Source: a virus
IMG/VR virus record: IMGVR_UViG_3300029448_000014
Coordinates: 1 to 64,000 of that record
Reading direction: 5' to 3' (one strand)
DNA: 64,000 nucleotides
This document shows, piece after piece, positions 1,691 to 62,764 of this stretch (positions are counted from its first letter, which is position 1; each line of letters begins with the position of its first letter). The position numbers were made by a program, and so were the translations under genes. The notes below the pieces were generated by a model that was not told the origin of the DNA, did not search any database, and saw nothing but the letters and a program-made list of their open reading frames with translations.

Positions 1691-2497
1691 ATGAAAGTCT
1701 CTCAATTGCTTTTAGATGTCCGTGACATGCAGGACATCCGTGACTCAACATTCAAGTGCTGGCTCAAAGCAGCCAAGCCGATAGCTGATGTTGAAGTCAG
1801 TGACATCGACAGGATGACTGTTACTCGTTATTGGCAGTCTCAACTCAAGCCGATTGGCCCTCTTTCTCCAGAGACACTGCGTCGTCGTCTCAGCCTGCTC
1901 ACAGGCATCTGGAACATGGCAAAAGATGATGAGATCATCGATGTGCCTAACTACTGGAGTAAAGCAAGCAGGAAGGTCAAACTAAATACGGATTACAACC
2001 GCCTAGGTAAAGAGTATCCAGTCAGACCCTTCAGATTCTACGGGCGATATCAGGCAGATCCTATCTTCTTAGCCATCTGGTACCACGGTTTCCGCATCGG
2101 CGAGATAGCAGGACTACTGCCTAACGAAATACGGTTTAACAATCAGATCCCTTACTTCCAAATTAAGAGAAATAGTGTGAGAGATATCAAGCCAGGTGCA
2201 TATCGAGAAGTGCCTATTCATCCTGAGTTCTATGCACATGTCCATCGTCTGACAACTGACTACAGCATGTACCCCGGTAAAAACTGGAGCCAATTGTTTA
2301 GCGAACGTATGCAACTACCGAAAGGCGAAGCAGCACACTCATTGCGGCACAACTTCATCACTCGCTGTAGGACAGCAGATCTGCAGGACTCAATGATCTC
2401 CAAGCTTGTAGGGCACAAACCAAAGGGAATGACAGCACGGTACGGAATCTGGACTTTGGAGGATAAGTTAAAAGCCATTCGTCAGGTAAGGCAGTAA
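1691..2497 (+). CDS. tyrosine recombinase/integrase
   Basis: Catalytic set GFRIGEIAGL (R), HSLRH (HxxR), LVGH and ARY (Y); core-binding domain with ETLRRRLSLL. Confidence 0.9.
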   Translation: MKVSQLLLDVRDMQDIRDSTFKCWLKAAKPIADVEVSDIDRMTVTRYWQSQLKPIGPLSPETLRRRLSLLTGIWNMAKDDEIIDVPNYWSKASRKVKLNTDYNRLGKEYPVRPFRFYGRYQADPIFLAIWYHGFRIGEIAGLLPNEIRFNNQIPYFQIKRNSVRDIKPGAYREVPIHPEFYAHVHRLTTDYSMYPGKNWSQLFSERMQLPKGEAAHSLRHNFITRCRTADLQDSMISKLVGHKPKGMTARYGIWTLEDKLKAIRQVRQ

Positions 2498-4709: not shown

Positions 4710-5105
4710 ATGGGATATGTTGAAGACTGGGGCGAACTTATGTTCAGTCTCCAGTGCCTTTCTAAAGGCTCCGCTAAGCGACAGTTCAGACAAGACATAC
4801 GTTACAGTTTCGGAGGACTATGTGCATACTGCCGAATAAAGAGAGCTGACACTATTGACCATTTAAAGCCCCGCTGTAAAGGTGGTAGTAATTTAAGGTC
4901 AAACTTAGTGCCGTGTTGCAAGGAATGTAACCACTCAAAAGGAAGTCAATTATGGCTACCCTGGTATCAACAACAGCCTTTTTATAATGCTGTTGCTCAA
5001 GAACTAATCGAAGAATGGATAGCTAACAAGCGAATGGACTCAGAAGATTATGACAAACGAATTGACAATAGAACAGAGGTTTGCCTTACAGCGAGCACGG
5101 TATGA
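4710..5105 (+). CDS. HNH endonuclease
   Basis: CAYC...TIDHLKPRCKGG..NLVPCCKECNHSKG, intact. Confidence 0.9.
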   Translation: MGYVEDWGELMFSLQCLSKGSAKRQFRQDIRYSFGGLCAYCRIKRADTIDHLKPRCKGGSNLRSNLVPCCKECNHSKGSQLWLPWYQQQPFYNAVAQELIEEWIANKRMDSEDYDKRIDNRTEVCLTASTV

Positions 5106-6845: not shown

Positions 6846-7028
6846 TTACTTGGTGTATGTACGACCACGGTACACAAAAGTGCCGTGTGTTTCGTGTGAA
6901 CCAGAACCAGGTGTGTATTCAACGCCACGATAATGTGTGTCGTTAATACGTGCTAGCTCAAGCTCTTTACGAGCACGCACCATTTGCTTACGAGCAGCTT
7001 CAATGCTCATGATTTGAATGTTTGACAT
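6846..7028 (-). CDS. DUF4278 family small protein
   Basis: HYRGVEY and VYRGRTY motifs; SD GGAG; lies behind a glutamine riboswitch. Confidence 0.8.
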   Translation of the reverse strand: MSNIQIMSIEAARKQMVRARKELELARINDTHYRGVEYTPGSGSHETHGTFVYRGRTYTK

Positions 7029-7056
7029 TTGGAAACTCCATAATTGGGTGAAGATT

Positions 7057-7166
7057 CCCGTTCCTTCAGTCCTGTCTGACCTACTTGCGTCTTGTGGATC
7101 ATAAATTACAAATGGTTAACGACAAAGATATTTGTAGTTAACGAGTGATCCACAAGATGAACGTAT
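7057..7166 (-). promoter_or_regulatory. glutamine riboswitch (glnA motif)
   Basis: Minus strand CGTTCA-TCTTGTGGATC...GATCCACAAGA-CGCAAGTAGG-TCAG..CTGA-AGGAACG gives P1 CGTTC/GAACG, a long P2, and an E-loop AGTA/GAA in P3. Confidence 0.8.
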
Positions 7167-7173
7167 TACTATT

Positions 7174-8889
7174 CTAGTTGATGTCTAAGCCTTCTGAGAA
7201 TCCGAAGTCAGGAATTGTGAAACCTCCAATCTTCCAGCGACCACCACGCTCACGTGCCTGCTTCACTTTCTTTTGAAGTGTTTCTGATTCTTCCTTACGC
7301 TTAGGACTTAGATTAGGAACAGTAGCTTGCATACCAACAGAGTCAGATAATGAACCTGCACCTGCAAGTGGTGCCATTGTCCTTGGAGTAGACATTGCTT
7401 GAATTGCAGGACCAAAGTTACCAGAATCTACAGCTAACTCACGTGCATTCTTTCCTGTAGCAAGAGTGCTTGCAGTATCGATAGCACCAATTGCAGTTAA
7501 TGGTGTAGCAACAATAGAAGAAAGTGCTGATAGAGCGTTAGGTGCTTGAGTTATACCAGCTTTAACGAGTCTATCTGTTGCCATACGTAAACCACCACCA
7601 AAAACTTCACCACCAACATATCCACCACCTACAGTAGCAGCTGCTTCTCCAACCCTACCTTCGCGTAATAGTTTGGCAGCTTCTGGTGAAGTCAAAGCAG
7701 CACCTGCTATACCCATACTTCTACCTTTTACAAACTTAGAATAAGCAGACTGCTTAGGAGAAGCTGCTTCGGGAGTCATTTGAATATAAGCATCAGATTT
7801 TTCAGGCAGAGGAATATGATTAGGTTCAAATGGATCATTATTTTCTTCGAGTAATGAGCCCCAGCCAATACGTGATTTAGTATTTGGTTTCATATTTTTA
7901 AGAGTGAACTCTTCAACCGTAGGAACTTTTCCAGTAGCTCTACCAGGATTACCAGATACAGGATGAGGTGATGCCAAATCTTCTACAACTCTAAATTCAG
8001 ATTTACCTGTAGCATCTGAGATTTTTTTAGTTAAGTCTGATAAGTATTGAGAATTACTAACGTATCCTTTAGGTTGTGGTTTTAGTCCAAGTTCATCTGC
8101 AAATTGATAAAGATCAGCAGCAGTTGTCAATCCTCCTATACGTCTACTTTCACTGCCAAACATTATGTTTTGCGATGAGTCTTCTACTCCCCATGTAGGG
8201 CGAACACCTTTAGTTGCTGCTTCATTAGCACCACCTGTATATAAATACTTTCCTTTTTCAGAAGGTTGTAAATCAGCTCCACTAAAGTGAATAGATGGGT
8301 CAGCCGTGCTTAGTTTACCAGCAGCATAATTGTTATCTGCATAAGAGTAAACAGGATTACTTCTGTGTCCCCAAAGGGTGTTAGAAGTTTGAGCACCAGC
8401 ACCTTGTTGCATTCCTTCTTTAACACCACCAAACCTAGAAGAAGTCGCTGTTGGTGTGACAGTGGCAATTGATTCTAAGCCATCTGAGTTTCGTAGATTG
8501 GTTAGATAACCTCCTCTTTGCGATGTGTCAGGTGGAATGAAGTCGGTTCCTTTGAATGGGAGCTTACGTGCTGGATTAAAGTAACGACCATTTTTAATGT
8601 AGTCAGCTTTTAATTCAGGATCTAAACCAGAAATATCCTTAGCAAAATCGAGACGATCAAACGAATCTGTATAGTCAGAATTGTTTCTAGTGTTATTAAA
8701 TATTTGTGCACCACCAAAACCCATTCCACCAATACCGGCATATAAAGCCTGCTCTCCTGCAAATTTCTTTACAGCATTTAATCTGCGTTGCCCTTCTTTG
8801 GTAACTATTGGTTGGCCGTTTGAGTCACGGCGTGATTCAGGATTGCCTCCTGGTCCATAGTAAGCCTTAAACTCAGGAAACTTTGACAT
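7174..8889 (-). CDS. large Gly/Ala-rich hypothetical protein (virion-like)
   Basis: 571 aa ORF; no recognised catalytic motif. Confidence 0.7.
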   Translation of the reverse strand: MSKFPEFKAYYGPGGNPESRRDSNGQPIVTKEGQRRLNAVKKFAGEQALYAGIGGMGFGGAQIFNNTRNNSDYTDSFDRLDFAKDISGLDPELKADYIKNGRYFNPARKLPFKGTDFIPPDTSQRGGYLTNLRNSDGLESIATVTPTATSSRFGGVKEGMQQGAGAQTSNTLWGHRSNPVYSYADNNYAAGKLSTADPSIHFSGADLQPSEKGKYLYTGGANEAATKGVRPTWGVEDSSQNIMFGSESRRIGGLTTAADLYQFADELGLKPQPKGYVSNSQYLSDLTKKISDATGKSEFRVVEDLASPHPVSGNPGRATGKVPTVEEFTLKNMKPNTKSRIGWGSLLEENNDPFEPNHIPLPEKSDAYIQMTPEAASPKQSAYSKFVKGRSMGIAGAALTSPEAAKLLREGRVGEAAATVGGGYVGGEVFGGGLRMATDRLVKAGITQAPNALSALSSIVATPLTAIGAIDTASTLATGKNARELAVDSGNFGPAIQAMSTPRTMAPLAGAGSLSDSVGMQATVPNLSPKRKEESETLQKKVKQARERGGRWKIGGFTIPDFGFSEGLDIN

Positions 8890-8915: not shown

Positions 8916-9125
8916 TTAACGGTTGAAATCAAACTCAAATACGCAGCCTTGTAACGTTGGTTTGATACCAAGTAAGCACTCTTGGTCAAGTTCTCCTTGA
9001 CCTGCCCATTTCTCTAAAGTGAAGACTACAGCAGAATGTAGCGCCCGAACACTCCGCTCGTTCATCGTAAATGTGATTTCTGTTTGCTCCATAGATAATA
9101 GTATATCTAATGTGTATCTTGCCAA
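8916..9125 (-). CDS. hypothetical protein (true start may be ATG at 9089)
   Basis: Short ORF following the polymerase gene. Confidence 0.55.
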   Translation of the reverse strand: MARYTLDILLSMEQTEITFTMNERSVRALHSAVVFTLEKWAGQGELDQECLLGIKPTLQGCVFEFDFNR

Positions 9126-10408
9126 CTAGCACCGGTATCAGCAGCAGCTGTAATCGGCACACGGAACTTGTAATACTGACCTGCAATAGGTGCAGCTTTA
9201 ACAAGTAGTTCTGCTACATGGTCAGCTTCAGTCGGCACAACAGATAGCTGAACTTCATCGTGCACATACGCACAACGGGTGTAGTCACGGTCGTATGTAA
9301 GACCTGCTTGATCAAGTAAGTCCTGCCCAACTACCACCCAACGCTTGCTGAGGATGGCGCCACATGACTGGAGTAAATAGTTGAGTGACGCATGCTCTGC
9401 GCGACAGAAAATAGGGCGGCCATCGAGGCCCCTAAGACGACCGGTATTACGGACTTTTTGTTTAACAGCATCAATAAGTGGCTCCAAACCTGGGATAGCA
9501 TCAAGGAATTTGCGGCGTAACTCTTGCCCCAGATGTTTCTTCTGTGCATCTGACAAAGCAGGCTGCAGAATATGAGCTAATTTTAGATCTCCAGCTCCAT
9601 AGATGAACCCATAGACTAAACTTTTGACCTCAGATCTTGTGCAACCAACACGGTCAGCATTCTGCTGATGTATATCACCATTCAGCACAACGTCAGCAAA
9701 AGCTCCCTCGTCAAAGACTGATAGGTAGTGCCCGAGCGCTCGAAGTTCGAGGCCCTCTAGGTCAGCACCGACCATGACGTGGCCAGGATGCGGAATGAAA
9801 AGTTGACGTGCCCACGGTGCAGAAACGACCTGTCCGAGATTCGGACCACGGTGTGCGTTACGCCCTGTCTGCGTAGCGAGGCTGCAGCTGTGATGGATGC
9901 AGTTGTCTTGTTCAATCGTGTTGAACCAAGAGTTAGCACCCTCAGACAGCTGTCCAAGCCACTTCTGCAGGGTGAGTAGACGAATGAACATCTCGCACTC
10001 TTCATGGAGTAGATCGTTTTTCTGCTGCAGTGCAAGGTCACGGATCTCAGCTAAGCAAGCTTCATCCACCTTTGGCTTACCGCTGTCAGTGAGCTTGGTG
10101 AAACGAGCACCACGGAACTGCTGTAACGCCCAGGCGATGTTCAGTCTGCTAGTCGGATTAAAGTCGATCAGCTTTGTAAAGGGAGCGCCAGCCACATAAC
10201 CCTTTGCTTTGTTCTGTCGTTTAGGCGTAAACACTTTTCCAGGCACGTAAGGGAAGCGCTTGAGAATTGCAGCTTCAAGGTCTTGCATTTCTGCAGAGAG
10301 CTCATTACGAACACGTTCAGCTGCTGCTATGTCAAAGCGGAAGCCTGAAGCTTCTTGTTGAGACATAATCTCAGCCATACGCATTTCAAGTTCAACACAA
10401 TCAAGCAT
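9107..10408 (-). CDS. polA: family A DNA polymerase, polymerase domain (T7-like)
   Basis: TGRNAH.GPNLGQV, motif A DLEGLELR, motif B KSLVYGFIYG, motif C VHDE; own SD GGAG. Confidence 0.95.
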   Translation of the reverse strand: MLDCVELEMRMAEIMSQQEASGFRFDIAAAERVRNELSAEMQDLEAAILKRFPYVPGKVFTPKRQNKAKGYVAGAPFTKLIDFNPTSRLNIAWALQQFRGARFTKLTDSGKPKVDEACLAEIRDLALQQKNDLLHEECEMFIRLLTLQKWLGQLSEGANSWFNTIEQDNCIHHSCSLATQTGRNAHRGPNLGQVVSAPWARQLFIPHPGHVMVGADLEGLELRALGHYLSVFDEGAFADVVLNGDIHQQNADRVGCTRSEVKSLVYGFIYGAGDLKLAHILQPALSDAQKKHLGQELRRKFLDAIPGLEPLIDAVKQKVRNTGRLRGLDGRPIFCRAEHASLNYLLQSCGAILSKRWVVVGQDLLDQAGLTYDRDYTRCAYVHDEVQLSVVPTEADHVAELLVKAAPIAGQYYKFRVPITAAADTGASWQDTH

Positions 10409-10484: not shown

Positions 10485-11024
10485 TTAGGCATAGTCGTTC
10501 ATTCTGCGAAGCATTAGTTCATATAATTTGACAGTAACTTCTGTATCTTGAATACAGTAGTCAAGCATTTCTGGTGTGTATACATCCCAGGCAGCTTCGT
10601 GTTTACCGAAGTCACCTTTAAAGCACTTAAGGCGGTAGCCCCATGCTTCTAGACTATGTCGTCCATAGAGTTTTTGTGGCATACCGTAAGGCCTACGCTC
10701 TTGATCTCGCTCCATGATGTGTGGATAAAATAATCTGCTAAGAACAAGCGTGTCGATAGCTTGTCCTTGGAAATTAAAATCATACGCTTCTTTGATTAAG
10801 GGGATGTCATAACCAAGAATGTTATGACCAATGAGTACATCTGCACGACATAGAGTATCAATGCCATCATCAATATCAAGACGTGGAGCGTCCCAGACAA
10901 TTGGTTTATCAGCTTGACTTAGGTCTCGTGCGACAATACAGTGAATTTTAGATCCACGGCGAAGTAAGCCCGTTGATTCCAGATCAAAAAGTAGTGCTTT
11001 CTTGGTCATTGGTTTGTTCGTCAT
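10485..11024 (-). CDS. 3'-5' exonuclease domain of the family A polymerase, encoded separately
   Basis: FDLES, GHNILGYD, HSLEAWGYRL and YCIQD; start at 11024 or 11009 is more likely than 11168. Confidence 0.9.
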   Translation of the reverse strand: MTNKPMTKKALLFDLESTGLLRRGSKIHCIVARDLSQADKPIVWDAPRLDIDDGIDTLCRADVLIGHNILGYDIPLIKEAYDFNFQGQAIDTLVLSRLFYPHIMERDQERRPYGMPQKLYGRHSLEAWGYRLKCFKGDFGKHEAAWDVYTPEMLDYCIQDTEVTVKLYELMLRRMNDYA

Positions 11025-11568
11025 GTAGTGAAGATTCGATACGGCTTGGTTCTGTCGGGATATGAACGTAGAGGTCTTTGTTGTCAAATTGCTCTTCGCG
11101 GTCGTCGAATCTTGGTGCTTGATTGTTGGTACTGAAACGTTCGTCTTCATTATCAAATAGTGGTTCAATGGATATAAAAAGTTCTCGGGCTAATCGTGCC
11201 GCACGTCTAAATTCATCTTTGTAGTATGGTTCCCAATCGTGAGCTAGAACCATAATTTTACGAATGCCCATCAGGTACAACTGAAAGACAGATGCAGAGA
11301 AGGGATAGCGAGTCGAGTAAATGACAGCTCCAGTAATTGGAGTGCCTCGTTTGCAAGCAGTGGCAATAGCATACGTTATGCAATCAAGTTCAACTTTGCA
11401 GTCGGCAAGGATACTGCGGCCATCACCACATATTTCACGATCACGAATAATCACGCAACCACCTGGTGCGATTGGATGTGTACTAGCAGTAGCTACTTGC
11501 TTGGCTAAATTCATGAAGTATTTATCTTTGTTTTTGATAAATGTTGGATCTGACTTAGGTGCAGGCAT
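10984..11568 (-). CDS. dCMP deaminase-fold protein lacking Zn/catalytic residues
   Basis: DKYFMNLAKQVA..S, G.VIIRD, GAVIYST and GIRKI are present, but HAE is replaced by DCI and PCxxC by PFSAS. Confidence 0.75.
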   Translation of the reverse strand: MPAPKSDPTFIKNKDKYFMNLAKQVATASTHPIAPGGCVIIRDREICGDGRSILADCKVELDCITYAIATACKRGTPITGAVIYSTRYPFSASVFQLYLMGIRKIMVLAHDWEPYYKDEFRRAARLARELFISIEPLFDNEDERFSTNNQAPRFDDREEQFDNKDLYVHIPTEPSRIESSLHDEQTNDQESTTF

Positions 11569-11618
11569 ATCTCACATATAGAGTCGGTTGTTTCTATATT
11601 AGATAGGCAGGCTAATAA

Positions 11619-12014
11619 ATGAGACATATGGATTACGATGAGTTCAAGAAAGAATATAAAACATATATGGAAAATGATATGTGGAATTTCAACCAAGAGG
11701 AAGATTCTATTGAGCCTGAAGGTGTTTCGAGACTTACTGATTTTTTAGAGCGTCGTAACAAAGTAGTTTCATTATCTAAAAACTATACAAGTCCAAACGA
11801 TATGGTCAACAGTCCTGCACACTACACTCGTGGTAGTCAAGAGGTTATTGACATTATCGAGCAAGCTATCAGTGACGCACCCAGTAATACAGAAGGGTAT
11901 TTACAGGGGCAAGCACTGAAGTATTTACTTCGTGTTTGGCTGAAGGATAATCCGAAACAAGATTGTGAAAAAGCTATGTGGTATATGAATCGATTAATTG
12001 ATAAGCTCGACTAA
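11619..12014 (+). CDS. DUF3310 / T7 gp1.7-like nucleotide kinase
   Basis: DMVNSPAHYT..EVIDII..GYLQGQALKY..R...K...D..KA.WY. Confidence 0.85.
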   Translation: MRHMDYDEFKKEYKTYMENDMWNFNQEEDSIEPEGVSRLTDFLERRNKVVSLSKNYTSPNDMVNSPAHYTRGSQEVIDIIEQAISDAPSNTEGYLQGQALKYLLRVWLKDNPKQDCEKAMWYMNRLIDKLD

Positions 12015-12035
12015 GACAGTGCCGGCGTTAGCCGG

Positions 12036-12455
12036 CTAACATCGTTGAAAGTATAGATTACCATCAGCATGTGAGAGAGATTCGAACTCTTGAATATGGG
12101 GGCTAATTTTTTCTAATACAGTTTTAGTGTCTATAGAGGCGTGTCGAAAGGTACATGCATAACCCTCGGCAAAAGGGTGATGCTCGTGTATTGGTATGTA
12201 CCACATTAAAGGTATTAAACAATCCCATAGTTCTAGGCCTTGCGATGCCCAGCAATTAAGCTCTTCCAATCGAGCCGCTGTTTTGATGATATGGGCTTCG
12301 TGAGCTTCAGTTTCAGGTAGAAACAGTTCTTGGTAGGGAGATACAAGAGCATGTCTCCACATAATTGTCCCATCCCGATGTATTAGCCGGGAGTGATGCA
12401 CTTGATTTCCAGAAGGTAAAGTGTAAAAAGAAGAAGCTACGAGATGCTTAACCAT
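12036..12455 (-). CDS. peptidase M15A-like fold, apparently inactive
   Basis: W..A...LP.....HII..A.RLE and WY.P are present; the SxHxxGxAxDF box reads HPFAEGYACTF. Confidence 0.5.
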   Translation of the reverse strand: MVKHLVASSFYTLPSGNQVHHSRLIHRDGTIMWRHALVSPYQELFLPETEAHEAHIIKTAARLEELNCWASQGLELWDCLIPLMWYIPIHEHHPFAEGYACTFRHASIDTKTVLEKISPHIQEFESLSHADGNLYFQRC

Positions 12456-13123
12456 CAGACATTACCTTTGCGTTCTTCGTAATATTCAAGATCTCTTTGC
12501 CAGGAATCACCAGTAAACTCATTTAATACTACTCTGCCGATATCACGGAAAGTATTATAAAAAAGTGAAACTTTATCGACCGAAGTTATCATGACATCAA
12601 TGGGAGGTCCGTAAATGATCAAGTTCCAGGTAGACGGACAAACTGGCTCAAATCCCTTAGCTGTTGCTCTAAGTTGTTTTACCCGCTTGAATGGTATGCA
12701 GAATGGATAATCAAGCAGAGCGGGAGCTGCTCGTATAATTTCCGAAGCACTAGTAAAGAATACAAAACTATTAATATAATGATTACGATATTCATTAATG
12801 GTTTTGTTTAGCCAAATTCGATTTGTACGTACTGCACCTTTAGGTGAGACGAAGACATTTCCATGCCAATGTTCTTGCAAAGGATTTGCTTCAACAGAGG
12901 GCACAGATGTTGCATCAACAAGTACCTGCTGAACTGGATCAGACGTGGGGTCAAAATCAATTGATCCCATAACTGTACGAGCTCGCTCAATGATTTCAGG
13001 TGTTGGATATAGCGGTAGTTTTAATCCAGATGCTTTTAGCTTATCCGCTAAATTCTGCTGTGACCGCTCGGAGGCTTTCTTGGCCCCCTCCTGCTTCGAT
13101 ACTAAATGTTCTTGTTCCAGCAT
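12455..13123 (-). CDS. phage N6-adenine methyltransferase-fold protein lacking NPPY
   Basis: TPEIIERARTVMGSIDFDPTS and W.GNVF are present; motif IV reads SPKG. Confidence 0.7.
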   Translation of the reverse strand: MLEQEHLVSKQEGAKKASERSQQNLADKLKASGLKLPLYPTPEIIERARTVMGSIDFDPTSDPVQQVLVDATSVPSVEANPLQEHWHGNVFVSPKGAVRTNRIWLNKTINEYRNHYINSFVFFTSASEIIRAAPALLDYPFCIPFKRVKQLRATAKGFEPVCPSTWNLIIYGPPIDVMITSVDKVSLFYNTFRDIGRVVLNEFTGDSWQRDLEYYEERKGNV

Positions 13124-13463
13124 TACTGATCAGTGTAATTAATACGTTTTTAGACCAGTCATTCTCGTCAATTTGCTCAAGCAGCGAACGTAAGAACTCC
13201 ACAATTTCTGTATCCTCTTCGCGTTCAGCAGAGACTAAATCAGATTCAACATCATGCCCAGACATATATGTTGTGGAGTCGTTGACTAAATTGATAACTA
13301 AGGAACCTGCGCCATTGGCTTCAACTCCATTCATTGCAACGTTAATTAAGTCTGTAAGTATAAGCTCAGCAGTAGCGGCCAAAAATTTTTGTTCGTTATC
13401 TTTCTCTTCTCCGAATTTATCAGATTGAAGAAGTTGCTGAAGTAGATCTGTACGTCTAGACAT
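13041..13463 (-). CDS. hypothetical protein
   Basis: 140 aa ORF in the operon. Confidence 0.65.
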   Translation of the reverse strand: MSRRTDLLQQLLQSDKFGEEKDNEQKFLAATAELILTDLINVAMNGVEANGAGSLVINLVNDSTTYMSGHDVESDLVSAEREEDTEIVEFLRSLLEQIDENDWSKNVLITLISNAGTRTFSIEAGGGQESLRAVTAEFSG

Positions 13464-13495
13464 AATTGAATGACTCTTTAATAAGGATAAGTAAT

Positions 13496-14311
13496 TTAAT
13501 GTTCTTCTGTGGGGTTACTATCGTTTTCCTCTATATCTGTTGGAGCACGAAATAGTCCAGGATCAGAAGGCTCTGTTTGAGAAATATGAGTACCGGATAA
13601 CATATCGTTCATGACAGCTTCAAACCGGTCTGCAAATGCAGTAGATGGATCTAGAAGAAGAGCTGCTCTAGCTTCAATTTCTTCTGTATTGTCATTCTTC
13701 TGCTCTTCTTTTAATGCCTCTTCAATCACATACTCAGCAACCTGCTGGCGTAATGTGTGAAGCTGACATGCAAGTTCAAATGAATCAATATAACTGTCTT
13801 GATCTACAAATACACCAACATGCTGCGGAATTAGATGGAACGGGTTACAGCAATATTTTTCGCCACATGTTGTTTTGACACCAGTGAAACCTAAGTCACC
13901 CCACGTTAACCACATTGCAACTCGCTGAGGATGATGCTGAGTGGAAGTAGAGATTCCAGGCCTACGCCATGAAAACTGAGGTTGCTTTGTTCTAGGATTA
14001 ACAACCCCATTCCACAACCAGCATTCATCAGGCTGACCTATATCAACTTGAGACCAGAACTTTAATGCCTTACTTCTATATTTTTTAAGCAGTCGGTCAA
14101 TATCAAAGGAAAGCATTCCTTCTCTTGCTGAGGCAACACAACGAACACAAGCTTGATGGCTGTCGTAACGCATTGAGTGTGAACTAAATCGTCCTAGCGA
14201 ATGTCCACTGTAGATGCATAATTCACCCTCTTCGGCAGTATTGGACATTTGCATATGACGTCTGCCATATGCATGTCCTCCTACCCGTTTGTTAGGTTTT
14301 GCTTCAGCCAT
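13496..14311 (-). CDS. Zn-finger plus HNH_3-like domain protein with a degenerate active site
   Basis: C..GH...CVRC, FWSQVD...ECWLW, HPQRVA and VKTTCGEKYCCNPFHL. Confidence 0.7.
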   Translation of the reverse strand: MAEAKPNKRVGGHAYGRRHMQMSNTAEEGELCIYSGHSLGRFSSHSMRYDSHQACVRCVASAREGMLSFDIDRLLKKYRSKALKFWSQVDIGQPDECWLWNGVVNPRTKQPQFSWRRPGISTSTQHHPQRVAMWLTWGDLGFTGVKTTCGEKYCCNPFHLIPQHVGVFVDQDSYIDSFELACQLHTLRQQVAEYVIEEALKEEQKNDNTEEIEARAALLLDPSTAFADRFEAVMNDMLSGTHISQTEPSDPGLFRAPTDIEENDSNPTEEH

Positions 14312-14312
14312 A

Positions 14313-14549
14313 TTAACTTTTTACATGTGGATTAACATAGGATCCACCCAATGCTGGATACTGATCTTCATTAGGTAATGCGCTTAACTGATGATTGATC
14401 ATGTATTCATAACGAGTGCTATTTTCATACTTTATACGAACAAGCTTCGATTTGGGAGTGTAATACTCAGGATTGCCTACAACTAATGCAGTCATGTCAT
14501 TAGGCGACACGAGCACTCGTAAGCCGATTTTAATATCAGTTGATTCCAT
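14313..14549 (-). CDS. small SH3/KOW-like hypothetical protein
   Basis: IKIGLRVLV.....ALVVG beta pattern. Confidence 0.6.
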   Translation of the reverse strand: MESTDIKIGLRVLVSPNDMTALVVGNPEYYTPKSKLVRIKYENSTRYEYMINHQLSALPNEDQYPALGGSYVNPHVKS

Positions 14550-14569: not shown

Positions 14570-16783
14570 TTAGAAGTCGTTGAGAATATGATCTTCTGTT
14601 AGTGGATCATCAGATGGACGAATCCATAGACGAATAGACTTAACTTTATTAGTCACAGGATCTTTACGTGAAGTATTTAATCGTCGCCAGCCAAGTGTCT
14701 GTAGGACATCAGCTACACGTCGAGCTTCCCGCCTCCCTTGTTGCCTAGGGTCAAGGTCAAGAGCTTTGGTAAGAACCTCAGCAGCAGTAACCTCTTCTCT
14801 AATTGTGACATAGTGACTAATTTTTTCCATCCAAGGATCTGGATCACCAAACTCTTGAATGTACTCAGCTATTTGTGCAATTTCCCCACTATTGAATTCA
14901 TATGAATTGCCATTTCGATAGGCTTGAACAGCTGAAGCCCAAAGGGAATCACGTTCATCGCTAATCTGCTTCCAAGGAATAAGGAAGCCACTGCCAATTT
15001 CAAGAGGTACAAAGCGACGATTCCCTGTACTGTCAACCAGAAACTGATTACGATTAGTCGTGCCAATCATAACAAAGCGACGAAGAAGTCGCTCTGGAAG
15101 ACTAGCATAAGGACGCCTTACTTCATCACAACGTGTTGTAATTAGATTCTTAAAGTTCTCAATATTACGAGACTGAAAGAAGTGATCAATCTCAGGAAGC
15201 TCTAGCAACCAAGCAACGTGCAATCTATATTGCTCTTTCATTAAGGTCTCCAATGGTGTAGAGACTTCAGCAAAGAGCTTCTCAGGAACAAGGCTACGGC
15301 TAAACATTGACTTACCGACGCCTTGTGCACCGACTAAGATCGGAAGCCAGGACATAGAGCAGCCAGGGTTATAAGCACGAGCTACTGCACCAATCATCAT
15401 CCGCTGCATAGCTAGGGTTGCTAGTTGATGCTTATTACCAAGAAATACTTCTCCTATGGAATCCCAGTCTTTATGTGGAATTGCATGTGCAGAACAGGAA
15501 TCTAAGTAGCTCTTGATAGGGCAGTACTTGTTTTTACCTGCTGCATATTGAATAGCTGACTTGATACGTTGCTCAGGAATAAAGACGCCATACTCACAAG
15601 CTAGCTTGGTAGTCATTAAGTCAAGGTCACTACCCTCTAACTCAATAGTTCGACCTTGAGCGTTGTTATATTCAATAGCCCCAGTAAGTTGATTTTTTCG
15701 TAAGTTACTGAGAATTTCTTTGACTTTGTTTACATCAGCTTCACGTTCTTTTGCAGCATCACTACTAGAACGCTTAGGTCTTCCTTTAGTTCTTTTGGCT
15801 AGAGAAGAATCGGGAATAGGTTCGAATACAGGATCCAATTTCATCTCCATGTTATTTATTACTTCATCAAAATTTGGCAGAGCATCAAACTCTATATAAC
15901 CTACCGCTGAACCGACTGCACCAAAGCGTAGCTCTGGAGGTAATTGTGATGACCAATTACTACTTTGTCGTTTAGCTAGTGAGTACAATTTAGCAGGGCC
16001 ACTATGGTTACCGAGACCACGCCATTTAAATGGTTGTATATTTTCTGGTTTTTCTCCATGGTGCCCACGTAATACCCAGTCAACCCAATCATCAAAGAGT
16101 GGTTGGCCTATGGCCGCACAGGCTGCCATAACTGGCACAAAACGTGTTTCATATTCGCCGTCTTCTGATGGCACTAAAAAGTTTTTAAGTAGCCACTGAC
16201 ATCTTTTGACATCTGTATCAGTTACATCGGACGCTACAAAATCTGTAGGGTCGTCATAGTCAATATCAGTCAGTAAGAACTCAGGGACAAGAGCACCTTC
16301 ATTAGTGAGCCAGTCAGCATTGGTGTTGCCATACCAAAGACGCTCTGACTTTTGACCACAGTTATCTTTAATAGTTTCAATACCGAGGTCAGCAAACAAA
16401 CGGTTAACGACAAGCCAGTAAGCACCACGATGCTGTGACGTAGAAGTCAGTTGCAACCCCAGGGGGAATAAAGCACGGAACCTGTGCTCTGCTTCCGTAT
16501 GACTAGCAGTGGTGTAGGTAGCAACACACCAATTACGTGCAGTATCTGTTTTCCAGAATGCATCAAGAGTAGTGTCACCATCAATATCTACAACAACTAA
16601 GTTGCTGCCTGATGCATTATCTACACGTCTGTGACGTTCAACAAAATGAGTGGCACACCAGCCGTAGCCGGCTTCCACCCATCCTCGTAGCCAAGTAAGG
16701 CTTTCTTCAATGTTTAGCCAGCCATGAGCTGGTTGCTTTTCTTTGTTTCGGCAGTCTTTATGTACTGCTATCCGCAGCTTCAT
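14570..16783 (-). CDS. primase-helicase (primase-like domain + PriCT + VapE ATPase)
   Basis: VVVDIDG, YTTASH..RFRALF, Walker A GAQGVGKS, RRPY and GTTN...D.TGNRRF. Confidence 0.9.
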   Translation of the reverse strand: MKLRIAVHKDCRNKEKQPAHGWLNIEESLTWLRGWVEAGYGWCATHFVERHRRVDNASGSNLVVVDIDGDTTLDAFWKTDTARNWCVATYTTASHTEAEHRFRALFPLGLQLTSTSQHRGAYWLVVNRLFADLGIETIKDNCGQKSERLWYGNTNADWLTNEGALVPEFLLTDIDYDDPTDFVASDVTDTDVKRCQWLLKNFLVPSEDGEYETRFVPVMAACAAIGQPLFDDWVDWVLRGHHGEKPENIQPFKWRGLGNHSGPAKLYSLAKRQSSNWSSQLPPELRFGAVGSAVGYIEFDALPNFDEVINNMEMKLDPVFEPIPDSSLAKRTKGRPKRSSSDAAKEREADVNKVKEILSNLRKNQLTGAIEYNNAQGRTIELEGSDLDLMTTKLACEYGVFIPEQRIKSAIQYAAGKNKYCPIKSYLDSCSAHAIPHKDWDSIGEVFLGNKHQLATLAMQRMMIGAVARAYNPGCSMSWLPILVGAQGVGKSMFSRSLVPEKLFAEVSTPLETLMKEQYRLHVAWLLELPEIDHFFQSRNIENFKNLITTRCDEVRRPYASLPERLLRRFVMIGTTNRNQFLVDSTGNRRFVPLEIGSGFLIPWKQISDERDSLWASAVQAYRNGNSYEFNSGEIAQIAEYIQEFGDPDPWMEKISHYVTIREEVTAAEVLTKALDLDPRQQGRREARRVADVLQTLGWRRLNTSRKDPVTNKVKSIRLWIRPSDDPLTEDHILNDF

Positions 16784-28034: not shown

Positions 28035-28421
28035 GTGAAGACCTGCAGTATATGCAGGCAATCGTTGTCAGAAGATAAATTCCACAAGAGAACTTATAAG
28101 ACTGGAAAGATTGGCCTGCAAGCAAAGTGTAAATCATGTTGCACTAAAGTGCGACGAGAAAAATACTACAAGCCTCATTCGTCTATAAGACTAAAGCTAA
28201 AGCTTAGTCAAAGTGAAGTAGATGAATTGCTAGCTCCAGGTAAATGTCAATGTTGTGGCGCTAAAGATAGAAAACTATGCATAGACCACAATCACGACAC
28301 TGAAAAACCTAGAGGCTTACTGTGTCACAACTGCAACACTGCTCTAGGTCTGTTAGGAGATAACGTTGAAACTATCCTATCGCTCAGCCGATACTTGGCG
28401 CAACGAGAGCCACTGGTGTAG
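28035..28421 (+). CDS. Endonuclease VII-family free-standing homing endonuclease (F-CphI-like)
   Basis: CSIC..CKSC N-terminus; CQCC...IDHNH...[12 protein letters not shown]; converges on and overlaps the psbA 3' end. Confidence 0.85.
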
Positions 28422-29472
28422 TGGTTGCTGATGCCAAATCAAGAGGAAAGTTATGTGCATTTCTCTCATGAATCACTTCTAGCCCAAGACCAGCGCGATT
28501 AAGAATATCGCCCCAGGTGTTGACGACGTGACCCTGGCTGTCCTGAATGGACTGGTTGAAATTGAAGCCATTTAGGTTGAAAGCCATTGTACTTACACCA
28601 AGTGCAGTAAACCAAATACCAACCACAGGCCAAGCAGCGAGGAAGAAGTGAAGGCTACGGCTGTTATTAAAGGAAGCGTACTGGAAGATAAGCCTACCAA
28701 AATAACCGTGAGCAGCGACAATATTATAAGTCTCTTCTTCTTGGCCAAATTTATATCCATTGTTATGACTTTCGTTTTCAGTTGTCTCACGAACAAGTGA
28801 GCTTGTAACAAGACTTCCGTGCATAGCACTAAAAAGAGAACCACCAAAGATGCCTGCGACACCCAGCATATGAAACGGGTGCATAAGGATATTATGTTCT
28901 GCTTGGAATACCAACATATAGTTGAATGTTCCGCTGATTCCGAGTGGCATTGCATCGGAGAATGAGCCTTGTCCAAAGGGATATACCAGAAAAACTGCAG
29001 AGGCTGCGGCAACTGGTGCGCTATATGCAACCATGATCCAGGGGCGCATACCTAAACGATAACTAAGTTCCCATTCGCGTCCCATATAGCAAAAGATGCC
29101 AATAAGGAAGTGAAAGATGACTAATTGGAATGGGCCTCCGTTGTAAAGCCATTCATCAAGGGAAGCAGCTTCCCAAATTGGATAAAAGTGTAGACCGATT
29201 GCATTACTGCTAGGCACAACAGCACCAGAGATGATGTTGTTGCCATACATTAGTGATCCGGCAACAGGTTCACGGATGCCATCGATGTCCACAGGAGGAG
29301 CAGCGATAAAGGCGACGATGAAACATGTTGTAGCAGCAAGCAGTGTAGGGATCATCAAGACTCCAAACCAACCGACATAGAGGCGATTGTTGGTGCTTGT
29401 TACCCAGTCAGTGAAAGAATCCCAAGTATCTTTAAGCGGATTAGACTTGGGAAATAGTGTTGTAGTAGACAT
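28384..29472 (-). CDS. psbA: photosystem II D1 protein
   Basis: [14 protein letters not shown] ... [13 protein letters not shown]; uninterrupted. Confidence 0.99.
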
Positions 29473-60040: not shown

Positions 60041-60982
60041 ATGTCAAACATAAAACTATCAGGGGACTCAGTTCGTTCATACTTGCGTGATATTGGGCGG
60101 ATTCCACTGCTAGAGCATGAAGAAGAAATCTTGCTAGGACGCAAGGTCCAACGACTGATGGAGATAAAAGAGATTGAAAAAGAAATGGTGATTAAGGATC
60201 AAGATGATTTGGCTAGGATCCTTGGTATTGGCAATAAGGAACTGAAACGTCAACTGAGAGAGGGTGAAAAGGCAAAAGAAAAAATGGTGACTGCAAACCT
60301 AAGGTTGGTTGTCAGTGTTGCCAAGAAATATACCAAACGCAATATGGAGCTATTAGACATAATTCAGGAAGGGACAATTGGCCTCGTTCGTGGGGTTGAG
60401 AAATTTGATCCTGGTCGTGGCTATAAATTCAGCACTTATGCTTACTGGTGGATTCGACAAGGAATTACAAGAGCTATTGCAGAAAAATCACGAGCTATAC
60501 GGTTGCCAATTCATGTAACAGAGAACCTCAATAAACTCAAGAAAGCTCAGCGTGAATTAAGTCAAATTAATGGAGAAATGCCAACGGTTTATCAAGTTGC
60601 TGAGTACCTCGACTATTCAGTTGATGAGATCAAAGATCTTATGTGTAAGGCACGTCAACCTACGTCACTTGAAATTAAAATTGGTGAAAACCGAGATACA
60701 GCATTAATTGATCTGCTTGAAGATGAGACGCAGCTACCGGAGATGTTGATGGAGCGCCAAGCGATCAAAGAGGATATGAGAGCAGTAATTTCCGAATTAC
60801 CTGAAATGCAAGCTGCCGTTATCAGGATGAGATACGGTATCGGGGAGGAAGTGTTTGAGCCAATGTCAATGACTGCAATTGGCCAAGTGCTTAATATGAG
60901 CCGTGACCGGGTGCGGACTCTAGAAAATAAAGCTCTTAAATTTATACGTGAGTGTCCTGATACGTTAATTGCACATCTTTAA
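60041..60982 (+). CDS. rpoD: RpoD/group 2-like RNA polymerase sigma factor
   Basis: DSVRSYLRDIGRIPLL, ANLRLVVSVAKKY, GYKFSTYAYWWIRQGITRAIA and a region 4 HTH. Confidence 0.95.
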   Translation: MSNIKLSGDSVRSYLRDIGRIPLLEHEEEILLGRKVQRLMEIKEIEKEMVIKDQDDLARILGIGNKELKRQLREGEKAKEKMVTANLRLVVSVAKKYTKRNMELLDIIQEGTIGLVRGVEKFDPGRGYKFSTYAYWWIRQGITRAIAEKSRAIRLPIHVTENLNKLKKAQRELSQINGEMPTVYQVAEYLDYSVDEIKDLMCKARQPTSLEIKIGENRDTALIDLLEDETQLPEMLMERQAIKEDMRAVISELPEMQAAVIRMRYGIGEEVFEPMSMTAIGQVLNMSRDRVRTLENKALKFIRECPDTLIAHL

Positions 60983-62392: not shown

Positions 62393-62764
62393 TTACATAT
62401 AACTTTCTTCTATTTTAGTCCATTTAAGATTGTCTATAGTGTTATTTAATTTATCACCATCAATATGCTTAATTCTGCTGCTTGTCCTATATTTACCGAG
62501 AGGTGTTGGTGGTGATTCAAGAAATGCCAAGGCGACTAACTTATGAACCGCAACTGTTATTGTTTGTTTGCGTCCTATACGTTGAGTTAGATTGACTTGT
62601 GAATAACCATTCTTATTTCTTCGAGCTTTAAGGATACGTTCAACAATTCCCTTGGTACTTTTGACTTCTCCTAAACAGTTCACATAGTACTCAATACAAC
62701 ACTCAAAGCCTGGCAGTAAATGTATCGGCTTCCAAACACTGTCATCTATAAATTCCATTACCAT
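62393..62764 (-). CDS. NUMOD4-HNH homing endonuclease-like protein
   Basis: WKPI...YYV...GEVKS, VHKLVA.AF and HIDGDKLNN...NL.W. Confidence 0.85.
   Translation of the reverse strand: MVMEFIDDSVWKPIHLLPGFECCIEYYVNCLGEVKSTKGIVERILKARRNKNGYSQVNLTQRIGRKQTITVAVHKLVALAFLESPPTPLGKYRTSSRIKHIDGDKLNNTIDNLKWTKIEESYM

Follow-up and report, generated by a model that had tools for sequence, protein, structure and literature searches.

Viruses are known to carry pseudoenzymes, and passages of two reviews (PMC7605207, PMC10211241) describe these as enzyme homologs without catalytic motifs that are kept for binding or regulatory roles, with homologs of glutamine amidotransferase, kinase and superoxide dismutase among the examples in the passages of PMC7605207. 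Here we followed up an earlier note, made from the sequence alone, on a window of 64,000 nucleotides (the whole stretch of DNA analyzed), which is the first 64 kb of the 73,051-base IMG/VR virus record IMGVR_UViG_3300029448_000014 (CheckV completeness 92%). The note had pointed to four genes between a primase-helicase and a polymerase that encode a deaminase-like, an M15-like, a Dam-like (adenine methyltransferase) and an HNH-like protein, and had proposed that each of them retains an enzyme fold and has lost the catalytic residues. We found that the four open reading frames (ORFs) are present and full-length, all on the minus strand, and that the four proteins have the properties of pseudoenzymes: each is a homolog of an enzyme family, each is without the catalytic motif of that family, and each is kept by selection. 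On balance, we lean towards the view that the four genes are binding-only, non-catalytic descendants of four enzyme families in a replication and nucleotide block.

Like the known viral pseudoenzymes, the four cluster proteins are enzyme homologs without catalytic motifs. They differ in their setting, as the literature searched, partly in the form of passages, contains no multi-gene cluster of this kind in a phage replication block. The earlier note knew of no described module like it, and the literature searched indeed gives no account of the cluster, although supplementary tables, which lie outside that scope, might list the products as hypothetical proteins. Pseudoenzymes are thus an already known kind and the phage lineage is already in print, whereas the cluster genes are without a description in the literature searched.

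The window comes from an uncultured marine cyanophage that is a relative of Synechococcus phage S-EIVl (KJ410740.1), the sole cultured relative found via a structural protein (a 750-residue virion protein, 44% identical). Passages of Flores-Uribe et al. (bioRxiv 10.1101/325100) report a new lineage of uncultured marine cyanophages that has a split DNA polymerase, an integrase, psbA and NblA, and name S-EIVl as the closest relative of this split-polymerase lineage. The window phage probably belongs to it: as in those passages, it has a split family-A polymerase, an integrase and psbA. The genomes described there are about 86 kb, compared with 73 kb for the window record. The cluster genes are not mentioned in the passages and the first part of the Results, and the words 'methyltransferase', 'deaminase' and 'primase' do not occur in the main text, the supplements being outside the scope of both statements.

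Folds and catalytic motifs of the four proteins

The deaminase-like protein matched Pfam PF00383 (dCMP_cyt_deam_1) at 27.1 bits against a cut-off of 25, with the whole domain covered. An AlphaFold2 (AF2) model, built on an alignment of the window protein and 28 of 43 distinct orthologs, had a predicted local distance difference test (pLDDT) score of about 90 over residues 11-140 and disorder from residue 145; the protein consists of a core (about residues 11-140) and a disordered acidic tail (residues 141-194, net charge -10). The top Foldseek match of the model was 7fh4, the dCMP/dCTP deaminase of PBCV-1 (E value 1.5e-10, template modeling (TM) score 0.80 when normalized to target length), and 7fh4, 2w4l, 4p9c and 1vq2 were matched at E values of 1.5e-10 to 8e-9. 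The dCMP deaminases found in this way include those of human, Streptococcus mutans, cyanophage S-TIM5 and T4, followed by RibD. Pfam and Foldseek together show that the protein has the cytidine-deaminase fold (alpha-beta-beta-alpha-beta-alpha-beta core), which it shares with the dCMP deaminases and RibD of PF00383 at Foldseek E values of 1.5e-10 to 1e-7. Its N-terminal THP..GG-C-V-I stretch resembles RibD, and this RibD stretch was all that a sequence search of the PDB recovered; a tblastn search against phages gave no match for the protein.

In deaminases, the HAE and PCxxC motifs provide the zinc ligands and the catalytic Glu. In the model, helix 2 starts at residue 63, so that DCI (within E60-L-D62-C63-I64) occupies the place of HAE, and helix 3 starts at residue 91, so that PFSAS (P89-F-S-A-S93) occupies the place of PCxxC. 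The His and Glu of H(C)AE were missing from this position in 56/56 close orthologs, and so were the Cys residues of PCxxC. Placement in the model and fixation among the orthologs bear out the replacement of HAE by DCI and of PCxxC by PFSAS that had been read from the letters. Unlike the dCMP deaminases, the deaminase-like protein therefore lacks the zinc ligands and the catalytic Glu, and it carries 54 residues of acidic disordered tail; its invariant polar residues within the lineage are E60, D62, H110 and E113. A search of the phage's own record with PF00383 gave no match; as its loose first look had likewise missed the window's own deaminase-like gene, it is only slight evidence that the record has no canonical deaminase in another place. 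Inactive deaminase domains, for instance those of ADAT3/Tad3 and plant PyrR, offer analogies.

For the Dam-like protein, a PF05869 match was found in 0/34 lineage members even at E <= 1, so that the gathering score of the family is not reached. A tblastn search nevertheless recovered phage methyltransferases (best E value 5e-10), of which 3/3 scanned match PF05869, and a profile search of 1.84 billion representative proteins gave 3,504 matches at E <= 0.001. When the profile of the Dam-like orthologs was aligned by hhalign with 12 canonical PF05869 relatives (the 3 of them that were scanned match PF05869 at 57 to 67 bits), the probability was 99.9% and the E value 5.6e-32 over 156 columns, which shows that the protein is homologous to the family core. 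The same alignment puts V-S-P-K-G on L-N-P-P-Y, with S93-P-K-G96 at the position of N-P-P-Y, and 80/80 close orthologs have [A/S]PKG in place of the motif IV (D/N)PP(Y/F/W). Thus, the adenine methyltransferase fold with SPKG for NPPY, as the note had described it, is supported both by the hhalign placement and by the orthologs.

The profile search listed 128 representatives with a length of 150 residues or more; their motif IV was [ND]PP[YFW] in 52, NPPG in 46, the [SA]PKG of the window lineage in 4 and something else in 24, and the region was not covered in 2. The relatives with NPP[YF] that were scanned (7/7) match PF05869 at 33 to 83 bits; a large subclass of the Dam family has NPPG(G) for NPP[YFW], and only some of its members reach the Pfam cut-off. 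The N-terminal IDxDP and the C-terminal PF.R motifs are kept in the Dam-like protein and are found in nearly all representatives whatever their motif IV. In the sister phages described below and in S-EIVl, motif IV of the Dam-like protein reads APTG, TPSS, APPS, PVTT, FPPN and so on. The window protein is accordingly like PF05869, a family of N6-adenine DNA methyltransferases from phages and bacteria, over the aligned columns and in its IDxDP and PF.R motifs, and differs from it in the SPKG motif IV and in extensions of about 35 residues at the N terminus and about 20 residues at the C terminus. Pseudo-methyltransferase partners, for instance METTL14 or the trypanosome PRMT prozyme, would be analogous in function. 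A PDB sequence search with the Dam-like protein found no solved structure of the family. A word-index search recovered close orthologs only, at least 74% identical (the best 120 of 472 at E <= 0.001), and a scan of bacterial and archaeal genomes gave four short contigs of metagenome-assembled genomes, the Synechococcus WH8016 island not being among the matches. In public gene calls, the Dam-like protein begins at one of several later codons, which gives forms of 211-216 residues.

The HNH-like protein matched PHROG endonuclease families at E values of 8e-9 to 1e-5 (family 1872 at 8e-9 and family 826 at 2e-8), and had no match in a PDB sequence search or a Pfam scan. By tblastn it matched an ORF of S-EIVl (E value 1e-10) and annotated HNH endonucleases of Corynebacterium and haloarchaeal viruses (StAB gp46, E value 6e-5); these Corynebacterium and haloarchaeal virus relatives score 54 and 32 bits with PF13392 (HNH_3). 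In a four-way alignment, the active sequence V-R-H-T-C-D-N-R-x-C-V-N-P-x-H-L-x-x-G-T-x-x-D-N faces V-K-T-T-C-G-E-K-Y-C-C-N-P-F-H-L-I-P-Q-H of the window, so that T147 aligns with the general-base His and the trailing GT..DN is gone. The general-base position is Thr in 65/66 and Ser in 1/66 close orthologs, and C149, C154, N156, P157 and H159 of the HNH core are invariant in 66/66; the zinc-type Cys/His residues of the core are invariant also in 31/31 sister sequences. The Asn of the downstream GT..DN is absent in the HNH-like sequences of the window, S-EIVl and the sister phages. The HNH_3 fold with VKTTC in the catalytic His region was thus correctly recognized in the earlier note, the His being missing in all close orthologs. 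Compared with homing-type HNH_3 endonucleases such as StAB gp46 and Halovirus HCTV-5 gp56, the protein shares the CW.W.G hairpin and the C....C.NP.H core, and differs in having Thr for the general-base His, in lacking GT..DN and in adding an N-terminal Cys/His cluster and a long acidic tail (the C-terminal third of the protein, net charge -13).

The M15-like protein had no match in Pfam (E <= 0.1), PHROG or NCBIfam, none in a PDB sequence search or in tblastn against phages, and no usable match in Protein Atlas. Its AF2 model, built on an alignment of the window protein and 60 of 67 distinct orthologs, had a mean pLDDT of 92.7. Foldseek against the PDB returned only weak rows for Hedgehog N-domains (E value about 0.1). 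In a VIA search, which is independent of Foldseek, the first match was 1lbu, the Streptomyces M15A zinc DD-peptidase (Z 10.3, root-mean-square deviation 2.6, 105 residues), whose Z stands 3 units above the next rows; these were mostly of the LAS fold, namely Hedgehog-N (Z 7.0-7.2), VldE, Ply500, LdcB, LysB4, VanX, VanXY and the endolysins of T5 and RB49. In BFVD, the model matched models named 'Peptidase M15A, C-terminal' with a probability of 1.00 and TM scores of up to 0.65. The 1lbu match, the LAS members and the BFVD models together identify the Hedgehog/DD-peptidase fold. Taken together, Foldseek, VIA, BFVD, hhalign and, for the HNH-like protein, the PHROG matches and the alignment with PF13392 proteins confirm the four folds that had been named for the cluster.

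M15A peptidases bind zinc through H-x(3-6)-D and a C-terminal His, and their signature reads S-x-H-x-x-G-x-A-x-D. We mapped the His and Asp positions by their spacing from the invariant G98, taken as the signature Gly, to columns 95 and 102, which hold L/F/M/Y/T and Y/T/F/I/E, respectively, among 81 sequences. By this spacing-based mapping, the expected ligand columns are hydrophobic or variable, and the fold match together with the column composition agrees with the claim of an M15A-like fold in which the metal-binding His and Asp are replaced. H52, E53, H55, H105, E125 and C139 are invariant within the lineage and H120 is nearly so; 0 His, Asp or Cys columns are conserved between the window lineage and the homologs in the sister lineages. 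The protein shares its fold with the LAS metallopeptidases (1lbu, VanX/VanY, phage endolysins and Hedgehog-N), but it lacks a Pfam M15 match and the conserved His/Asp/His set, and its gene sits in the replication block and not in the lysis block.

Conservation and linkage in close and distant relatives

As close relatives we used the best 80 of 269 IMG/VR stretches that encode Dam-like relatives. Gene order is identical in all 80 loci as far as each contig reaches, and the ORFs are intact in 56-81 orthologous sequences per gene. Amino-acid identity to the window is 78-95% for the Dam-like protein (80 loci), 74-95% for the polymerase, 69-93% for the HNH-like, 60-86% for the deaminase-like and 41-91% for the M15-like protein. 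The ratio of nonsynonymous to synonymous substitutions (dN/dS) was taken as the median of pairwise Nei-Gojobori comparisons with the window, using only pairs with a dS of 0.05-2; the pairs left out are saturated at synonymous sites. It was 0.038 for the Dam-like gene (22 of 79 pairs), 0.051 for the HNH-like gene (9 of 65), 0.059 for the M15-like gene (6 of 80) and 0.144 for the deaminase-like gene (37 of 55), compared with 0.099 for the polymerase (17 of 34) and 0.062 for the primase (12 of 38), so that the cluster genes fall in the range of these two replication genes. Judged by these ratios and the intact frames, the four are real, expressed-type genes under strong purifying selection. The check that the earlier note had asked of the orthologs thus turned out in its favor: the substitutions are fixed (56/56, 80/80 and 66/66 for the deaminase-like, Dam-like and HNH-like proteins), synteny is kept, and dN/dS is well below 1.

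The cluster (Table 1) was described as four genes, and these four are there; it also holds an acidic 140-residue ORF, a 78-residue ORF and a plus-strand DUF3310 gene, all of which the note had missed. The acidic ORF is present in 79/80 close loci, always directly upstream of the Dam-like gene, and has a dN/dS of 0.148 (70 of 77 pairs). Its product (net charge -16) has a fold without an assigned family, as Pfam, PHROG and NCBIfam gave no family match and Protein Atlas no usable match. The 78-residue ORF was found in 65/80 close loci, the misses being limited by contig ends. The DUF3310 gene interrupts the cluster and stands outside the pseudoenzyme set; among the 80 loci, its strand is opposite to that of the cluster genes in 75 and the same in 5, which suggests a local inversion or an independent cassette.

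To look further away, we started from ten distant Dam-like proteins in which motif IV is degenerate, and the loci around their relatives gave a sister set (loci L088-L133, n=46), whose contigs range from about 6 to 94 kb, about half of them above 40 kb. These loci were searched with hidden Markov models (HMMs) of the window lineage. The sister Dam-like proteins are about 31-37% identical to those of the window lineage. The Dam-like gene was found in 46/46 sister loci, and the acidic ORF lies directly upstream of it in 45/46, the one miss starting at a contig end. An M15-like ORF was recovered by a second-round HMM in 45/45 sister loci with room for it: 43 have it after the Dam-like gene or overlapping that gene's end, and 2 have it between the acidic ORF and the Dam-like gene. 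The HNH-like gene was found in 37/46; in 7 of the misses the upstream sequence is shorter than 3.5 kb, and no HNH-like match was found in L100 and L103 despite 7 kb of upstream sequence. The 78-residue ORF is the immediate upstream neighbor of the HNH-like gene in most sister loci. In the sister phages, the genes run in the order primase, deaminase, 78-residue ORF, HNH-like gene, other genes (about 2.7 kb), acidic ORF, Dam-like gene and M15-like gene.

Some details of the sister loci are of note beside this order. The intervening 2.7 kb of L088 includes a thyX-like gene, and downstream of its M15-like gene, at a distance of a few hundred bases, is a dGTP_diPhyd_N (PF18909) gene, roughly in the place of DUF3310 in the window. 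The acidic ORF and the Dam-like gene of the sister phages are a few bases apart, as opposed to an 83-nt overlap in the window. The genomes behind L088, L106, L111, L128 and L122 are 75-94 kb.

A deaminase gene is present in 25/46 sister loci, between the primase and the 78-residue ORF (2275-2781 in L088), where the window has a gap of 20 nt. This sister deaminase is a canonical dCMP deaminase, with a Pfam score of 69.4 bits and with HAE and CxxC in 23/23 distinct sequences, and it is similar to the window protein at the family level only (E values of 1e-4 to 1e-8). The dead deaminase is therefore special to the window lineage. A search of five sister genomes with the pseudo-deaminase profile found none, although a first look had also missed their canonical deaminases.

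In S-EIVl, we found an HNH-like gene (V-S-R-T-C), a Dam-like gene (motif IV F-P-P-N) and an acidic ORF whose overlap with the Dam-like gene is a single base. What follows the Dam-like gene is a dCTP deaminase gene and not an M15-like gene, and tblastn (E <= 1e-3) gave no match in S-EIVl for the M15-like and deaminase-like proteins. The HNH-like ORF of S-EIVl (7027-7704, 225 residues) is annotated only as a shorter hypothetical protein (7027-7467), with two tiny opposite-strand ORFs annotated over the rest of it.

The idea of a module holds to the extent that the pseudoenzyme genes are kept and syntenic, but not as one indivisible four-gene unit, as the sister phages split it into two groups. 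On this gene content, the trio of acidic ORF, Dam-like and M15-like genes and the pair of 78-residue ORF and HNH-like gene predate the split of the window lineage from the sister phages. Similarly, the placement between helicase and polymerase holds in the window and the close loci, and is not found in the sister phages or S-EIVl. No match to the window PolA or to PF00476 was obtained in four sister genomes, of which three are complete with terminal repeats (negatives of the search tools that we treat cautiously), and PolA of S-EIVl lies about 45 kb from its Dam-like gene. The adjacency to the polymerase is therefore a feature of the window lineage.

Binding or catalysis

Since the enzyme folds are kept and the catalytic residues are missing, the proteins probably work by binding. 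We infer from sequences and models that the four proteins lack activity and have binding roles and partners, and that they would act by binding, not by catalysis, within a replication and nucleotide-metabolism program. The HNH-like protein would bind DNA via its retained zinc-stabilized His-Me scaffold and make protein contacts through the acidic tail. For the Dam-like protein, the ligand would be a cofactor or DNA and the likely partners the acidic protein and the M15-like protein; the deaminase-like protein would bind either a nucleotide or another protein as its partner. In the T7 replisome, acidic tails mediate contacts, and the acidic tails of the cluster may be analogous. A complex prediction for the Dam-like and M15-like proteins scored 0.00 in both runs, which gives no answer either way.

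We favor a loss over a change of catalysis because the replaced motifs vary freely between lineages and the scaffolds stay, because the HNH core keeps its structural zinc-type residues, and because the Dam-like protein keeps the shared motifs except the base-binding loop. The acidic partner ORF (isoelectric point (pI) 4.2) and the acidic tails of the deaminase-like and HNH-like proteins further support this preference.

Several observations weigh against binding-only roles. The term 'pseudoenzyme' would here denote that canonical residues are absent, but the residues of an active site can migrate; H105, E125, C139 and H120 of the M15-like protein or E60 and D62 of the deaminase-like protein could form a new site. 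His is found at the general-base position in 8/31 sister HNH-like proteins, the full column being P 11, H 8, A 5, N 4, M 1, T 1 and R 1. With NPPG in 46/128 representatives, loss of the aromatic residue is common in the Dam family and may not imply the loss of all activity. The metal-ligand positions of the M15-like protein would follow from motif spacing and not from a residue-level superposition. Finally, the linkage comes entirely from one broad phage group with a conserved architecture, and adjacency may partly reflect shared descent.

A rival explanation is that some or all of the four proteins are still catalysts, through migrated or new residues and in a different reaction, for example on nucleotides or in a pathway of phage-DNA modification. 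The new invariant polar residues (H52/E53/H55/H105/E125/C139 in the M15-like and E60/D62/H110/E113 in the deaminase-like protein) would fit such catalysis, as would the large NPPG subclass, the nucleotide-metabolism neighbors (DUF3310, thyX, ribonucleotide reductase (RNR) and a MazG-type pyrophosphohydrolase) and the fact that the Dam-like protein is conserved to the same degree as the polymerase. However, the candidate residues of the M15-like protein are not conserved in the sister lineages, the motif IV loop of the Dam-like protein differs in almost every lineage, and in the deaminase-like protein the starts of helix 2 and helix 3 leave no possibility of a three-ligand zinc site. We therefore regard continued catalysis as unlikely, though it is an explanation to be taken seriously.

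It could also be proposed that the proteins are host-takeover or anti-defense decoys or sensors that mimic host enzymes and sequester S-adenosylmethionine (SAM), nucleotides, restriction enzymes or deaminase- or nuclease-based defense proteins. Enzyme scaffolds free of catalysis would suit a decoy, the strongly acidic partner protein could be a DNA mimic, and the M15-like protein diverges fast, from identities of 41-91% within the lineage to being barely detectable beyond it. Typical anti-defense genes, however, are fast-evolving accessory genes, whereas conservation of the Dam-like and HNH-like proteins matches that of core replication proteins and the genes have a fixed place within the replication block in all loci examined; we consider decoys quite improbable. 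That the motif losses are artifacts of misalignment, wrong ORF calls or decaying genes is hardly credible: three of the four proteins have no Pfam match at E <= 0.1, so that none of the three reaches a gathering score, and the deaminase-like protein is only 2 bits above the cut-off, but two independent structure models match their folds strongly, hhalign gives 99.9%, the motif columns are fixed, and decaying pseudogenes are rejected by frames that are intact in 56-81 sequences each and by dN/dS values far below 1.

Under the preferred reading of binding-only proteins, a bolder proposal is that the acidic, Dam-like and M15-like proteins, and perhaps the HNH-like protein, form a new non-catalytic assembly for replication or its control, to which the window lineage has added the dead deaminase as a nucleotide-sensing or scaffolding subunit. 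We give this specific assembly a small chance only; if it is true, the assembly is a core replication part of a widespread group of marine and freshwater cyanophages. More broadly, conservation like that of the polymerase and two linked sub-clusters across divergent cyanophages would point to an unrecognized, binding-based replication function in an abundant group of ocean viruses. Phage genomes hold a great many genes that are called 'hypothetical' or that take an enzyme's name from the similarity of the fold. The practical consequence is that annotation by fold alone would mislabel the four genes as deaminase, peptidase, methylase and HNH nuclease, none of which can work in the canonical way. 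Testable candidates are at hand, as the cultured S-EIVl carries the pair of acidic ORF and Dam-like gene and the HNH-like gene, and the active sister deaminase and the dead window deaminase make a natural pair of the same fold in an active and an inactive state.

Gene layout and the phage record

Table 1. Positions in the window of the cluster genes, their flanks and the lineage markers.
Feature	Position	Strand	Basis or remark
Primase-helicase, VapE-like domain	14570-16783	-	upstream flank; PF05272 171 bits; PHROG helicase and primase families
78-residue ORF	14313-14549	-	adjoins the HNH-like gene
HNH-like, 271 residues	13496-14311	-	PHROG E value 8e-9; alignment with PF13392 proteins
Acidic 140-residue ORF	13041-13463	-	without family match
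Dam-like, 222 residues	12455-13123	-	hhalign 99.9% to PF05869 relatives
M15-like, 139 residues	12036-12455	-	structure model matches 1lbu
DUF3310 gene	11619-12014	+	PF11753 55 bits; PHROG 'nucleotide kinase'-type families, E value 8e-23
Deaminase-like, 194 residues	10984-11568	-	PF00383 27.1 bits; structure model
Exonuclease subunit, split family-A polymerase	10485-11168	-	PHROG exonuclease family; downstream flank
Polymerase subunit, split family-A polymerase	9107-10408	-	PF00476 99.8 bits; PHROG polymerase family; downstream flank
Integrase	1691-2497		marker of the lineage in bioRxiv 10.1101/325100
psbA	28384-29472		marker of the lineage in bioRxiv 10.1101/325100
Sigma-factor gene	60041-60982		marker of the lineage in bioRxiv 10.1101/325100

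The coordinates confirm that the frames are intact and that several genes overlap or abut. The start codon of the M15-like gene and the stop codon of the Dam-like gene have base 12455 in common, an overlap of 83 nt (13041-13123) joins the acidic ORF and the Dam-like ORF, which are in different frames, and the end of the HNH-like gene at 14311 abuts the start of the 78-residue ORF at 14313. Both protein ends at the overlap of the acidic and Dam-like ORFs look conserved across orthologs. In its longest form, with a TTG start at 11168, the exonuclease ORF shares 185 nt with the deaminase-like gene (10984-11168); its DxE motif starts near residue 62, and internal Met codons at about 11024 and 11009 would reduce the overlap to only about 26-41 nt. 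As the note had said, nearby enzymes have kept their motifs, which are visible in PolA and the exonuclease and, as RHR..S, in thyX. No P-value can be assigned to the co-location of four such genes. Scans of promoters and terminators were at chance level (16 vs 18.1 expected and 7 vs 6.3 expected, respectively).

The window carries a cyanophage gene set of psbA, a tyrosine integrase, a sigma factor, thyX, a class I-type RNR, the MazG-type pyrophosphohydrolase and a terminase. With integrase, psbA and sigma factor, the phage is possibly a temperate cyanophage. The split family-A polymerase is 45-47% identical to those of T7-like cyanopodoviruses, and a blastn search of the region against phages gave as its sole match a 77-base stretch of the polymerase in two Pelagibacter phages. 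An N4-like identity was rejected, as the giant RNA polymerase is absent and the largest ORF in the window is 750 residues. Close to the polymerase gene lies a 571-residue ORF (7174-8889, minus strand) that is rich in Gly, Ala and Ser, has a basic C terminus and is without a PHROG or NCBIfam match. Further HNH genes of the window are found at 4710-5105 (plus strand) and 62393-62764 (minus strand), with PHROG HNH endonuclease matches at E values of 6e-24 and 2e-21, respectively.

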